Assembly (NCBI GenBank): GCA_022841645.1
Contig: JALHRC010000005.1
Span: 2,804-66,803, forward strand
Direction of reading: 5' to 3'
DNA: 64,000 nucleotides
From: Minisyncoccota bacterium
Lineage (GTDB): Bacteria > Patescibacteriota > Minisyncoccia > Phycocordibacterales > UBA918
The notes beneath the pieces were generated by a model, which saw nothing but the letters and a program-made list of their open reading frames with translations, was not told where the DNA came from and made no database searches. Of this stretch, positions 1,275 to 44,889 are shown piece after piece. Position 1 is the first letter of the stretch. Every line of letters begins with the position of its first letter. A program made the position numbers and the translations under genes.

Positions 1275-3257
1275 TTACTCAACCATGGACAGCCAGTGGG
1301 CGTAGCCAAGCGCCGACATCTCGGCCTTAGGAATAAAACGTAGTGCCGCACCATTCATGCAGTACCGTTTACCACCGCGGTCGATCGGCCCATCATCAAA
1401 GACGTGCCCAAGGTGCGAGTCGGCGAACCGTGACCGCACCTCAGTGCGCACCGAAAACAACTTCCGATCTTCGTGGTGCGTCACCACTTCATCACTTAGC
1501 GGTCGTACAAACGACGGCCACCCCGTACCCGAATCAAACTTATCGCGCGAGGAGAATAGCGGTTCGCCAGATATCATGTCAACGTACAAACCGGGTTCAT
1601 AGTGTTGGTCAAGCGCGCTGGTACCAGCACGCTCTGTAGCATCTTCGCGCATCACCCGAAAGGCCACCTCAGAAAGTAATGTTCGCAACTCTTCGTCGAC
1701 TGGTCGTATATACGTCTCCCATGAAGAAGGGGTAAATTGGTTACGAGTAGCTGAATCCATAGTGGTGTTTGTTGCCAGATTGTCCGAATAAGTAAATTTT
1801 TTAAGGTCACTTCCCCACGTTGATTCTATGAAGGCTGTTCGACCGGAAGCACTGCGATACAAACTATATCGTAGTGGATTCTTTAGAGCGTAGTCTTGGT
1901 GGTAGTCTTCGGCTGGGTAGAACGGCGGTCGCGCTACTACTAGCAGCGGAAGCGGCGCTGGAAAAATCCCACGAGCGTCAACGGCTGCGATCACCGCCAG
2001 TGCCGCTCTCTGTTCCTCCTTTGTTTGATAATAAATAGCTGGAGCATACTCACTGCCACGGTCTTTAAACGAACCATGAGCGTCAGTCGGGTCACCATGC
2101 TTAATAATATGTTCCACCAGATTCGCGTAGGATACGATTGACGGGTCATACACCACCTGCACGACTTCGCGGTGACCGCCGTCATCGTAGTTCTTGTAAT
2201 CTGGATTTTCGGTAGTACCGCCAGCATATCCAGAGACAACATCAATGACCCCCGTCACCTTCGCTAGATCGTGCTCGACGCACCAGAAACAGCCGTTGCC
2301 AAACAAGGCGTTGGCAGTTTTAGTTGGTTGTGGTGGTGCGGGTGGGGTTACTGGTTCTCGAAGTACTGCAACTATTTGACTACCACTAGTCATCATCTGG
2401 TCATCCACTTCTTTAGCATCAAGGGTTGTGCTGGTAGCCTCTGTCAAATCTGTAGTCGCTAACGTCACTCCACTCTCAGCACTCATTGGTTGAGGTAGCG
2501 GAAGCGGTGAGGGGACCGATTCGGCTGGTGCAAACTGACGCAGGAGTTCTTCTTCAAATTGGATAGTGGCTCCATAGCCACTATCAAGAACGAACGACTC
2601 AAACTGCTTGTCCCAGCCCATCACCACCGCCACTCCAACACACAGCAGGAGTACGCCAAGGCCCTGGCGCACTCGCGCAGTAGTGGTAAGCCGTTTTAAG
2701 AGTACGTTGACAAACTGCTGACCAAAGTAAGCAATCAGAAAGAGAACAAGGACCAATCCCAACACAAATCCTCCCAAATACCACAACCCCAGCGCAAGTG
2801 ATGCTGGTAATACGGTCGCAATAATAAAGAGATAGGTTGGACTACAGGTCGAGAACACCGGACCAAGTGCCACCCCCATCAGCACATCCCCGCGCCAGCT
2901 GTTAGCCTGGTAGCCGCCACCGACTGCCCGATTGCTTAGCCGTGCTATCCGGCCCACAAGCGGCACTCTACCCCACCACGTCGGTACCAGAAGCGACAAA
3001 CCAAGGAGCGCAAGCACGCCTCCGGAAAACCACGTCCAAACGCTTGGCGGAATGGTAATCAGTAGCGTCGTCGCTCTAAGAAGGAGCGTAAAGACAATCA
3101 CCGATGCAGCGAGCACGAGAATCACTACCACTGACCGCCGTGAGAGATGGCGCGCTCCTGGCTCACTTGCACCGATCACGACCGGCAACAGCGGCAAAAT
3201 ACAGGGGGCCAGGACCGTGAGTGCCCCAGCCAAAACGGAGATAAGAAAGAAGGACAT
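1275..3257 (-). CDS. msrAB: Tri-domain fusion: CcdA/DsbD-type thiol-disulfide transporter TM domain - MsrA - MsrB (membrane-bound peptide methionine sulfoxide reductase A/B)
   Basis: The N-terminal six-TM region carries the CcdA motifs LAPCILPLLP and FSTCSPTY. A Pro-rich linker follows. The MsrA motif GCFWCVEH and the MsrB motifs GTGWPSF, HLGHVFDDGP and RYCMNGAALRF complete the 660-aa product. Confidence 0.85.
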   Translation of the reverse strand: MSFFLISVLAGALTVLAPCILPLLPVVIGASEPGARHLSRRSVVVILVLAASVIVFTLLLRATTLLITIPPSVWTWFSGGVLALLGLSLLVPTWWGRVPLVGRIARLSNRAVGGGYQANSWRGDVLMGVALGPVFSTCSPTYLFIIATVLPASLALGLWYLGGFVLGLVLVLFLIAYFGQQFVNVLLKRLTTTARVRQGLGVLLLCVGVAVVMGWDKQFESFVLDSGYGATIQFEEELLRQFAPAESVPSPLPLPQPMSAESGVTLATTDLTEATSTTLDAKEVDDQMMTSGSQIVAVLREPVTPPAPPQPTKTANALFGNGCFWCVEHDLAKVTGVIDVVSGYAGGTTENPDYKNYDDGGHREVVQVVYDPSIVSYANLVEHIIKHGDPTDAHGSFKDRGSEYAPAIYYQTKEEQRAALAVIAAVDARGIFPAPLPLLVVARPPFYPAEDYHQDYALKNPLRYSLYRSASGRTAFIESTWGSDLKKFTYSDNLATNTTMDSATRNQFTPSSWETYIRPVDEELRTLLSEVAFRVMREDATERAGTSALDQHYEPGLYVDMISGEPLFSSRDKFDSGTGWPSFVRPLSDEVVTHHEDRKLFSVRTEVRSRFADSHLGHVFDDGPIDRGGKRYCMNGAALRFIPKAEMSALGYAHWLSMVE

Positions 3258-40640: not shown

Positions 40641-40757
40641 TAAAAAGCAAGTATTTAAAGGTCTTTCCGGGTAAAAGTGTTTGACTTATAGTAAAAAACT
40701 GTTATTATACTTTTGCAACAACATCGTTGCAGCCCGCAGGATGTCAGGAGACACGAG

Positions 40758-41150
40758 ATGGGTGCTTTGTCACATGAACTGCTCGACCGAGGGTTTTTCT
40801 CCGCTCTCGGCACAACTGAGCGCGCAAGTTTCCCGAACGGGGGATACCTGGTGGAGCACAAGGGGCCCTACACCTGGGACACCAACAACGGGGTTCTGGT
40901 CGTTTACGATGAGGAGGGGCGACCGTGGCTGAGGCGCACCATGACCAGTGAGGGACAGCCTTTCGTCGAGTCGGATGCGTGGCGAAAAATCTGCTCGTGC
41001 GTTCTCGTCGACAGCGCCTGGAGCAGGAACACCAAACCGGAACTGACTCGGGGTGCCTACGTTCCCCACTCGAATGATGGCGGCCTGTTCCTGAAGGCCC
41101 TCGAGTTACTCTTCCAGGCAGGCAAGCGGGAGCTCATGATCAACCGCTGA
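40758..41150 (+). CDS. Hypothetical protein (130 aa)
   Basis: An SD (AGGAGA) precedes the ATG. A GC hairpin plus T-run terminator follows at about 41167-41215. Confidence 0.45.
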   Translation: MGALSHELLDRGFFSALGTTERASFPNGGYLVEHKGPYTWDTNNGVLVVYDEEGRPWLRRTMTSEGQPFVESDAWRKICSCVLVDSAWSRNTKPELTRGAYVPHSNDGGLFLKALELLFQAGKRELMINR

Positions 41151-41212
41151 TAGACCCCCAACAGATGCCGCAGCCGCCCCCGGCATTTCTAAGTGGGCGG
41201 CATTTTCGTTTT

Positions 41213-42338: not shown

Positions 42339-43592
42339 AATATGAGCTTTTCCTAAATACTTCTGGAGTGCCTCCGGCACCTTGATAGTGCCATCAGCCT
42401 GCTGGAAATTCTCCACGAGTGAGACAAGGATGCGCGGCGTGGGAATGGCGGTGCAGTTAAGCGAGTGGGCGTAACGCATCTTCCCTTCCTTATCGCGATA
42501 GCGAATGTTGAAACGGCGGGTCTGAAAATCGTGGAAGTACGAGGCAGAGCTGATCTCGCGATATTTCTGCTCGTCTGGCACCCACAGTTCGATGTCATAT
42601 TTCTTCACTTGCCCCTGACCGATGTCACCACCACAATTTAAGACCGTGCGGTACGGGATACCGAGTGATTCGATAAACTCTTCGGTATTACGATTGATCG
42701 TCTCGTGCCACTGCACACTCTCCTCGTGCGAGGCTTCGCAGAGCACGACTTGCTCTACCTTGAAAAATTCATGGACACGGATAAGCCCTTTGACGTCTTT
42801 GCCGTGGCTCCCCGCCTCACGCCGGTAGCAGGGTGAGAAGGCCAGGAATTTAATCGGAAACTGCGCGTGGTCGAGTACCTCGTCGGCAAAGTAGCCCATG
42901 GTAGAGACTTCGCTCGTGCCAATCAGGTAGTCGTCGTCTTGCGTGCGGTAGACGTCGTCGGCATCATTGGGGAGATGTCCCGTGCCATAGAGATTGCTCT
43001 TGCGCACAATCGACGGCACCAGGAGTGGATCAAAACCTTTCGTCTGAAAAAACTCATTGGCGTAATTCCAAATAGCCCAGGAGAGACGCGCTCCGTCACC
43101 AAGGAGGTAGTAGCCGCGGAAGCCGTGTACTTTCGTACCGCGTTCAAAGTCCACCATCTTATGTCGGACCATCAGTTCGGTGTGATCGAGGGGCGTGAAG
43201 GAAAATTGTGTCTGCTCACCCCAATTTTTCACCTCCACGTTATCGGCGTCGCTGTCGCCATCAGGGACCGACATGTCGGGGATGTTCGGCACCTGGAGCA
43301 TGAGCGCCTGCCACTCCTCCATAATTGGTTTGACCTTTTCTTCCTCGGCTTGGATGTCGGCTTTGAGGGTTTGCATCTGTGTGATCAACTCCTCACGCCG
43401 CGCGCTGTCGGCCTGCGCGATTTCTTCAGAGACTTTATTTTGCTCGGCCTTCTTGCCCTCAACGGCACTTAAAAGCGCGCGGCGCTCATCATCGATAGAA
43501 AGCAGCCGATCAATATCGACCTTGATCTTTTTCTTCCGTGCCGCCTCCTTCACAAGATCAGCATTCTCCCTGATGAATTTAATATCGAGCAT
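42333..43592 (-). CDS. serS: Seryl-tRNA synthetase
   Basis: It has an N-terminal coiled-coil tRNA-binding arm and class II motifs 1-3 (e.g. GTSEVS, FRRE..GS..GL..HEF, GG). Confidence 0.9.
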   Translation of the reverse strand: MLDIKFIRENADLVKEAARKKKIKVDIDRLLSIDDERRALLSAVEGKKAEQNKVSEEIAQADSARREELITQMQTLKADIQAEEEKVKPIMEEWQALMLQVPNIPDMSVPDGDSDADNVEVKNWGEQTQFSFTPLDHTELMVRHKMVDFERGTKVHGFRGYYLLGDGARLSWAIWNYANEFFQTKGFDPLLVPSIVRKSNLYGTGHLPNDADDVYRTQDDDYLIGTSEVSTMGYFADEVLDHAQFPIKFLAFSPCYRREAGSHGKDVKGLIRVHEFFKVEQVVLCEASHEESVQWHETINRNTEEFIESLGIPYRTVLNCGGDIGQGQVKKYDIELWVPDEQKYREISSASYFHDFQTRRFNIRYRDKEGKMRYAHSLNCTAIPTPRILVSLVENFQQADGTIKVPEALQKYLGKAHIG

Positions 43593-43599
43593 ACGCGGC

Positions 43600-43955
43600 T
43601 ATATATAAAAGTGTATGCGAAAGATTATACATGAAAAAAGAAAAAAGCCGGGTCGAGGGATGCGCTGCGGCAAACCCCCTTCCCGGCCTGCCAGCGAATT
43701 TCACGCCGACATTTTTACCATTTGACCGGCTAGCTTTTCTGGCCGCCGGAACTCTACTATGTAGTAATTTGCTTTGACTCTCTACCCGAGCTTACCACCC
43801 CGTCGGGCGGCGTCTGGCTGCTACAGGTCGGGTGAGGGCGCAACTCCCCTTCTTGCACGCCCGTGAAGTGCCGCTTTAGTAAGCAAGCCACCTTCCGGGA
43901 CTTGTCGTAGCCGCTGCAGCGACTAGTGAGGACGACGGTCCAGAATGATCACCTC
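43600..43955 (-). promoter_or_regulatory. Structured about 330-nt leader upstream of serS with its own promoter and an attenuator-like terminator; T-box riboswitch candidate
   Basis: On the minus strand a promoter TTGACT-N16-tgTATAAT sits at about 43958-43990. The GC-rich hairpin-dense RNA has a GGAA tetraloop, a specifier-like AAAGCG (AGC is a Ser codon), and a T-box-like AAAUUCGCUGGCAGGCCGGG whose UGGC would pair with the tRNA-Ser GCCA end. A GCCGGG/CCCGGC stem plus UUUUUUCUUUUUU lies 45 nt before the serS ATG. No ORF is present. Confidence 0.3.
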
Positions 43956-44016
43956 ACATCCTTATTATACACAATCAACTACAAAAGTCAATAGGCAGAG
44001 TGCTACAATAAAATCA

Positions 44017-44889
44017 ATGGTGTTTGAGACCATTACCAAGCTTCTTCCGAGCGAGTGGCCACCTGCCTTCGCCCCACTGTTTGAGACGCCCGAACCACCG
44101 AAAGAACTGTGGGCGCTTGGTACTTTGCCCCCGCCGGACCTCACCCTCCTTACCGTCGTTGGCTCCCGCAACTACACCACCTACGGCAAGCAGGTAATCG
44201 AGCACCTCATTGGTGGACTGCGTGGTTATCCGATTGGCATCATCTCGGGTCTCGCTCTCGGGGTCGACGGCCTCGCGCACGAGGCGGCACTAGCAAATGG
44301 CCTCTATACCCTGGCGGTACCGGGGAGTGGACTGGGTGAGGACGTGCTCTATCCAGCGAGTCACAAGAAGTTAGCGGGGAGGATAGTCGAACAGAGCGGC
44401 GGCCTCCTCTCGGAATATCCACCCACGGCCGCCGCCGCGCGGTGGACCTTCCCGGCGCGCAATCGCATTATGGCTGGCCTTGCGAAAGCCACCCTGCTTA
44501 TCGAGGCCAGCAGTAAGTCGGGTACCCTCATCACTGCTCGCATGGCCGTCGACTATAATCGCGAACTCCTCGTTGTCCCTGGCAATATCTTTTCCAAAAA
44601 CTCGTACGGGGTGCACCAATTTATAAAACTCGGCGCCACGCCAGTCACTTCCGCCGAGGACATTCTCTACGCCCTTGGCCTTACCCCCGAAGAGCGCCCG
44701 CCCGTCCCATTACGTACTCTCTCACCCGAAGAACAAAAGGTACTAGCGCTCCTTAACGAACCGCGCGACCGCGATGAACTGATTCGCCTCCTCGCCCTCC
44801 CTACTGCCGAAGCCACCACCCTCCTTATGATGATGGAAATAAATGGTCACATCGCCTGCGACATCAACACCTACCGCTCACTTCGCTGA
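44017..44889 (+). CDS. dprA: DNA processing protein DprA (Smf)
   Basis: It has the DprA Rossmann-like domain (VVGSRNYTTYG, IISGLALGVDG, VVPGNIFS) and a C-terminal winged helix. The start could instead be at 43945. Confidence 0.8.
   Translation: MVFETITKLLPSEWPPAFAPLFETPEPPKELWALGTLPPPDLTLLTVVGSRNYTTYGKQVIEHLIGGLRGYPIGIISGLALGVDGLAHEAALANGLYTLAVPGSGLGEDVLYPASHKKLAGRIVEQSGGLLSEYPPTAAAARWTFPARNRIMAGLAKATLLIEASSKSGTLITARMAVDYNRELLVVPGNIFSKNSYGVHQFIKLGATPVTSAEDILYALGLTPEERPPVPLRTLSPEEQKVLALLNEPRDRDELIRLLALPTAEATTLLMMMEINGHIACDINTYRSLR

Follow-up and report, generated by a model that had tools for sequence, protein, structure and literature searches.

The intergenic region of about 420 bp that separates dprA from serS, in a genome of Kaiserbacteria-like Patescibacteria (CPR), contains a transcription unit which we hold, with moderate confidence, to be an independent small RNA (sRNA) gene. 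Its structured product of about 320 nt would be dispensable and lineage-specific, and would represent a family outside Rfam, here called family A. The window, that is, the whole stretch of 64,000 nt of DNA that was analysed, also includes a DUF1963 gene and then topA in the neighbourhood of the two genes. According to the proposed scheme, a strong sigma-70-type promoter would fire adjacent to the dprA start, and the transcript would fold into hairpin H1 (UCUGG loop), hairpin H2 (UGCA loop), the linker ACGACAAGUCC, hairpin H3, a variable centre and hairpin H7, and would end at a strong intrinsic terminator of its own, serS being transcribed separately from the TGTATAAT promoter just downstream (Table 1). 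We infer that the RNA is made and stable, and that it would act in trans, alone or in an RNA-protein complex, by means of the conserved unpaired UCUGG, UGCA and ACGACAAGUCC segments. The original prediction had put forward a T-box-type leader of serS and had kept an independent sRNA as its fallback; it is the fallback which the evidence favours.

Table 1. Features of the dprA-serS intergenic region and its flanking genes (positions in the window)
Feature	Position	Strand	Basis and details
serS, seryl-tRNA synthetase, 419 aa	42333..43592	(-)	Pfam Seryl_tRNA_N and tRNA-synt_2b
serS own promoter	43624..43631	(-)	TGTATAAT -10 box without -35; TGTATAAT in 13/13 close-clade loci
Family A structured non-coding RNA, predicted transcript of ~320 nt	43634..43957	(-)	Homologues; no conserved ORF; no Rfam match
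Intrinsic terminator	43634..43687	(-)	Compound hairpin 43687-43647 and U6CU6 43646-43634
Hairpin H7	43690..43710	(-)	GUCGGCG-UGAAAUU-CGCUGGC; helix table
Variable central domain	43711..43859	(-)	Poor alignment between homologues
Hairpin H3, long and irregular	43860..43899	(-)	Outer stem CCCG/CGGG conserved; tip variable
Conserved single-stranded linker	43898..43908	(-)	ACGACAAGUCC; alignment
Hairpin H2	43908..43925	(-)	7-bp stem, conserved UGCA loop; covariation test
Hairpin H1	43926..43957	(-)	Stem sequence differs in each homologue; loop with UCUGG 43944-43940
RNA-gene promoter	43964..43991	(-)	TTGACT 43991-43986; 16-nt spacer ending TGTG; TATAAT 43969-43964
dprA, divergent from serS	44001..44889 including promoter box; CDS end 44889	(+)	Pfam DNA_processg_A

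The anatomy that had been predicted for the unit, comprising a near-consensus promoter, an untranslated body, a terminator with its U-run and a TATAAT box further downstream, was found in place. The promoter of the RNA gene agrees with the consensus at 11 of 12 positions and stands back-to-back with that of dprA. The 64-kb window has two matches of at least 11/12, where shuffles lead one to expect 0.8, so that the match is by itself not significant. The terminator hairpin (GCCGGG...CCCGGC) has an energy of -25.1 kcal/mol when folded alone, and its U-run ends 42 nt 5' of the serS ATG; a simple terminator scan misses it, the "loop" being itself a nested hairpin. The region had also been described as GC-rich and hairpin-dense: the hairpins are there, while the GC-richness is marginal, with a G+C of 0.56-0.57 in the unit against about 0.54 in the flanks (some 2-3 points). 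The folding energy gave a z-score of -2.0 relative to shuffles for the window RNA, and of -0.8 and -0.9 for two homologues. None of these properties, be it folding stability, G+C or promoter match, is convincing alone, and the unit appears credible through comparison with its relatives. It stands above chance because the promoter is kept at the same place in relatives (the same box at the same position in L048, L055, L051, L053, L059, L061 and L064, among the serS loci compared) and because its helices carry compensatory changes. With regard to coding potential, stops occur in all frames, and no ORF is common to the four homologues on either strand. An ORF of 48 aa on the plus strand (43631-43777) was considered and rejected, being antisense to the terminator and not conserved in L048.

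On the opposite strand, the ATG of dprA is located at 44017, and the box TGCTACAAT at 44001-44009 ends only 7 nt 5' of it, owing to which the dprA mRNA is probably leaderless. The spacing from TGCTAYAAT to the ATG of dprA is the same in L036 and L048 as in the window. The reading frame that the ORF tool begins at 43945 (a 314-aa product on Logan contigs) over-extends dprA by 24 codons, into the promoter of the RNA. Three promoters and one terminator are accommodated within some 420 bp, which illustrates the compactness of these intergenic regions.

Homologues of the RNA were identified in L048 (1176-1493), L055 (1176-1463) and L063 (1-333, cut at the 5' end), the seryl-tRNA synthetases (SerRS) of these lineages being 91%, 88% and 87% identical, respectively, to that of the window; identical copies of the window RNA are carried by five Logan contigs (L043-47). 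All homologues came from contigs of the closest SerRS relatives and are confined to this range of 87-91% identity, i.e., to a few closely related uncultured Kaiserbacteria-like bacteria. The nearest species-representative serS loci belong to metagenome-assembled genomes annotated as Kaiserbacteria, Paceibacteria or Parcubacteria, and BLASTN of the RNA against 42 species-representative loci returned nothing. An nhmmer profile built from the four RNAs detected no further relative among 65 loci, including those with other units at the same site. Metagenomes scanned with a pattern that runs from the terminator into the serS promoter gave a single matching contig, L055, and two viral scans yielded one chance match, inside a coding region and without the H2 stem.

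Comparison of the homologues reveals a conserved 5' part (H1, H2, the linker and the base of H3) and a conserved 3' part (H7 and the terminator), which enclose a variable centre. In H2, 100% of the cells are paired and both sides have changed in five of the seven pairs, a result equalled by 2 of 500 shuffles and lost in the slid controls, where pairing collapses; RNAalifold likewise recovered H2 from the full MAFFT alignment, in which the variable centre is misaligned. One compensatory pair and no broken pair were observed in the outer stem of H3, one compensatory pair in its mid-stem (L048/L055), two in helix H5 of the central domain (L048/L063) and two in the outer stem of the terminator, while H7 exhibits one compensatory and three wobble changes, again with none broken, and takes the form CCGG-loop-CCGG in L055 and L054. 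Over the six helices, the register of which was chosen by hand, this amounts to 12 compensatory pairs and 0 broken. Since only four homologues from a single narrow clade are available, the statistical power is low; nonetheless, helices with compensatory changes and no common reading frame, in these four to five sequences, are the signature of a functional folded RNA.

Several unpaired elements are also retained. UCUGG is present in the H1 loop of 4/4 homologues, and is complementary to the CCRGG of the terminator 5' strand and to a central CCAGA, with which it may pair. The linker ACGACAAGUCC shares its first base with the end of H2 and its final two bases with the beginning of H3, and its AAG(U/A)CC changes together with the GG(-/U)CUU that stands at the terminator's 3' end; there are two states, which may reflect a single event. 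The 5' strand of the terminator, GGCCRGGAAGGG, is unusually conserved, beyond the needs of termination alone. Folding energies of the terminator hairpin in the four homologues are -25.1, -20.0, -23.0 and -16.5 kcal/mol; the U-tract is poor in L055 (UUCUUUCG), for which reason read-through into serS is likely in that lineage. The central domain may hold a pseudoknot module, GUGCAA..GGGGAGUUGCGCCCUC at about 43858-43834 (pseudoknots were inferred by eye), and a central block of 13 nt, GGGAGUUGCGCCC, is common to the window and L055, at a different position in each. The tip of H3 holds the strings GGAA and AAAGCG, and differs in both sequence and length in L048, L055 and L063.

The distribution of the RNA is patchy even among close relatives. 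In a SerRS tree, the lineages that bear it are interspersed with empty ones and with others that carry different units, L048 standing beside L036, and L055 beside L053 and L054. The RNA is absent or deleted in four loci: L036 and L062 have a short, empty dprA-serS gap and an intact serS, L056 has a hairpin only, and L054 retains a remnant composed of the last two hairpins of the RNA. The deletion in L054 removed the 5' third of dprA together with about 230 nt of the RNA. At the level of the locus (L054 1290-1470), mid-dprA, at about codon 100, is joined to the two remaining hairpins, which leaves a truncated dprA of 196 aa and, before the serS promoter, nothing but the terminator. This lineage can evidently dispense with both dprA and the RNA. 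That sister lineages have no such RNA, or something else in its place, indicates more generally that the RNA is dispensable. The tree suggests that it is ancestral to the clade and has repeatedly been lost or replaced, with serS unaffected.

The search of Rfam 15 that the original prediction called for, with emphasis on the T-box, SRP, 6S and RNase P models, was performed on the whole window at gathering thresholds, and on the locus (601 nt, 43500-44100) and its homologues at E<=10. At the former level, no family match was obtained in the region of the RNA. At E<=10, the T-box, SRP, 6S, RNase P and bacterial tmRNA models gave no match in the window locus or the three homologues, and the matches that did appear were of chance level only (mir-4429, Rev44, cyano_tmRNA at 9 bits and Hammerhead_HH9 at 14 bits), three of them in the search of the 601 nt.

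A strong promoter and a length of some 320 nt would suit a highly divergent housekeeping RNA, whether RNase P RNA, SRP RNA, 6S RNA or tmRNA, and certain motifs add to the impression. The size of family A, a hairpin directly before GAcAAGUCC, and GACAAGUCC with a possible pairing of AAGUCC to a 3' GGCUU all recall RNase P RNA and its P4 helix, the comparison being with E. coli M1 RNA, and CCGGAAGG recalls helix 8 of SRP RNA. The likeness to P4 is superficial, however, and is due to the co-variation of the linker with the 3' end of the terminator: in family A, unlike RNase P RNA, the 3' partner is part of the terminator stem. The RNA also lacks ACAGAA (CR-V), the P1/P2 closing helices and a conserved GNRA loop, and ARAGORN detected no tmRNA. 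Its absence or deletion in sister lineages is, moreover, incompatible with an essential RNA. A housekeeping identity is consequently regarded as very improbable. RNase P RNA (RF00010/RF00011), 6S RNA (RF00013) and tmRNA were each rejected on account of the missing covariance-model or ARAGORN matches and the four loci without the RNA, to which the missing CR-V and P1/P2 elements are added in the case of RNase P. SRP RNA (RF00169/RF01854) was rejected on equivalent grounds. The SRP-like character once ascribed to the unit thus dissolves, as the GGAA is not a conserved tetraloop, CCCGGAAGG being replaced in the homologues by GCCGGAAGAAC, GUUGGAGCAG and CCUGGACAC.

A T-box riboswitch sensing uncharged tRNA-Ser was suggested by the position of the unit upstream of an aminoacyl-tRNA synthetase gene, by its several hundred nucleotides of stacked hairpins followed by an intrinsic terminator, and by the string AAAUUCGCUGGCAGGCCGGG, which is indeed present at 43701-43682 and resembles the T-box sequence weakly. 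Genuine T-boxes do occur upstream of serS in two CPR relatives, and served as positive controls: RF00230 was detected in L027 (757-921; 48.4 bits, E 3e-8) and in L031 (2770-2883; 26.4 bits), both from Campbellbacteria-like CPR with short leaders and a plain AGGGUGGCACCGCGG box. With the same model, positions 43500-44100 of the window, L048, L063 and L055 all yielded nothing at E<=10. Family A also has no AGGGUGGNACCGCG box. The UGGC proposed to bind the tRNA-Ser end is paired, as the 3' strand of H7, and has CGGU as its counterpart in L048, L055, L063 and L054; the wider candidate, CGCUGGCAGG in the window, corresponds to CGCCGGUAGG, GACCGGUAGG, CAUCGGUAGG and GACCGGUGGG in these four, in the same order. 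The AAAGCG proposed as the Ser specifier falls in the non-conserved tip of H3, and no conserved Ser codon was found in the equivalent loop among the homologues. Finally, terminator and serS are separated by a conserved promoter, and the RNA is absent from sisters in which serS is intact. Most of what the original prediction had named as refuting a T-box has been observed: covariance scores are below threshold, and comparison marks the downstream TGTATAAT as the conserved promoter of serS. The T-box reading is refuted, and the probability left to it is close to nil. For a T-box, it is not sufficient that a terminator precede an aminoacyl-tRNA synthetase gene, and a tempting mis-annotation is hereby corrected. 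As a separate observation, the T-boxes of L027 and L031 contain a UUUAGCA(C/G)AGUGGAG segment with a possible AGC Ser specifier; routine annotation would miss them because their scores are below the Rfam gathering score of 93.

The promoter of serS itself bears on a broader question, namely whether the RNA is a leader of another type. The TGTATAAT box ends 31 nt 5' of the serS ATG, which predicts a 5' UTR of about 25-30 nt. The box recurs 29-39 nt 5' of the serS ATG in 13/13 close relatives, L036, L062 and L056 among them, whatever lies upstream, and its retention with or without an upstream unit shows that serS has its own conserved promoter. The distal promoter could still be a second serS promoter (P1), from which a cis-acting, non-T-box leader or attenuator would be transcribed. 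Such an RNA would respond to some signal by permitting or preventing formation of the terminator. The UCUGG of H1, which mimics the CCUGG/CCCGG of the terminator 3' strand, could compete for CCRGGAAGG and so serve as an antiterminator. The RNA abuts serS in the same orientation in all homologues; UCUGG is conserved while the stems around it diverge, and 5-8 bp can form between it and CCRGG, which in L063 is the pairing of minimum energy for the truncated transcript. The unusual conservation of that strand and the weak U-tract of L055 point the same way, as do the T-box leaders of the more distant CPR relatives, which demonstrate that attenuation of serS exists within the group. Nevertheless, the intervening serS promoter is found in every close relative, and L036 and L062 do without an upstream unit altogether. 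Folding of truncated transcripts gave a different partner of the terminator 5' strand in each homologue, although the UCUGG/CCRGG pairing, which does not resemble that of a T-box, is possible in all four. A loop contact of 5 bp is also weak beside the -16 to -25 kcal/mol of the terminator hairpin. In sister lineages, the sequence that stands between promoter and terminator at this site is unrelated, and no conserved core resembling a ligand pocket was found in the RNA. An attenuator is considered rather unlikely, though it is the main rival of an independent gene. If the RNA did gate read-through into serS, it would be an attenuator of a new type.

The independent sRNA gene, which we prefer, accords with the features by which such genes are generally recognized: a promoter and a terminator of its own, a non-coding body and compensatory substitutions, here drawn from four to five sequences. 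In the comparison of loci, a gene separate from serS is favoured by the conserved promoter of serS, by the interspersed distribution of the RNA on the SerRS tree and by the unrelated interiors that other lineages have at this site. Stand-alone sRNAs such as 6S RNA and the Ms1 RNA of mycobacteria are likewise discrete, non-coding units that measure a few hundred nucleotides, begin at a strong sigma-70-type promoter, end at an intrinsic terminator and keep their structure through compensatory changes. Family A differs from 6S RNA in not being a rod with a central bubble, and from the stand-alone sRNAs in having no sequence or structure match in Rfam and a very narrow, patchy distribution. Antisense action on the starts of serS or dprA was examined and rejected, as the energies of RNA duplexes with these regions were no better than those of shuffled controls and the interacting segment of the RNA differs in each lineage.

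The CPR, or Patescibacteria, are a very large bacterial branch, uncultured and with tiny genomes. To our knowledge, few regulatory RNAs have been described from them, and a literature search found no paper on non-coding RNAs of the CPR. Family A is a concrete candidate, with support from covariation, for a new RNA family in this group and, should it act in trans, would give access to biology that is specific to the CPR. Its immediate impact is modest, given that the family is narrow.

The site occupied by the RNA is conserved more widely than the RNA. Fourteen lineages have a TTGAC(A/T)-N16-TGTATAAT promoter beside the dprA start, and an all-against-all BLAST of the unit interiors (150-360 nt) showed them to be unrelated except for family A. 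Such a pattern would be expected of a transcript without a function of its own, where the promoter, for example as the divergent partner of that of dprA, or the act of transcription is conserved, and where a fast-drifting body ends at a terminator that protects serS. The centre of the RNA, which aligns poorly even among homologues, and the weak folding z-scores are compatible with such a filler. Compensatory double changes, in contrast, keep H2, H3, H5, H7 and the terminator paired without a single broken pair, and the stems change around loop and linker motifs that stay the same. Filler is expected to show neither pattern, and this reading is quite improbable.

As the promoter and the junction of terminator and serS promoter are kept while the bodies differ, the site acts like a slot that accommodates small accessory transcription units. 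Two bolder readings are of low probability: that the site is a dedicated, strongly transcribed slot, with bodies that are swapped or diversified and the 320-nt RNA as one cassette among them, or else that a new class of serS attenuator is at work through competition between a hairpin loop and a terminator strand, seems decidedly unlikely to us. The conserved-promoter/variable-body pattern is a more intriguing lead than the RNA family itself. Were the slot reading true, fast-evolving RNAs of host-dependent CPR bacteria would be deployed in a cassette-like manner, for instance in the interaction with phage or host.

Other units at the dprA-serS site were seen in L007, L014, L042, L051, L053, L059, L061, L064, L008, L009, L013, L017 and L018. 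Each has a strong promoter and a terminator, and some resemble non-coding RNAs of 100-360 nt that are mutually unrelated. In L007, L014 and L042, at about 250-400 nt upstream of serS, the units encode small hydrophobic peptides (MIYRRIYFGWYWFF... in L007, MFRIFSGWFWLF... in L014) preceded by a GGAGG ribosome-binding site (Shine-Dalgarno). The unit upstream of serS in L009 (about 2610-2650) begins with GUCAGGGUUCGAUUCCCUAGCUGAC, a perfect hairpin resembling a tRNA T-arm (GGUUCGAUUCC); no tRNA or tmRNA was reported there at Rfam gathering thresholds.

A second gap, of about 570 bp, lies at 40641-41212 of the window, its neighbours being a dihydrouridine synthase gene and the gene that follows downstream of serS. 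Its G+C reaches about 0.6 towards the 41000-41200 end, and Rfam gave no match within it. A promoter-like TTGACT-N16-TATTAT is located on the plus strand at 40681-40708, and at the corresponding place relatives carry a small plus-strand gene (71-82 aa as called).

A conserved hairpin of a different kind occurs just before the serS start in L004, L011, L015 and L019, within the last 45 nt or so (about 2955-3000 of the locus). It reads AAGUAAAAUA-UAGUCGCUNCGCUC-UUAUUUUUACUU and is followed by AAUG, and its stem co-varies to GCAAAAAAUA...UUAUUUUUUGC in L019. This hairpin, which is unrelated to the RNA of the window, could be a translational operator of serS.
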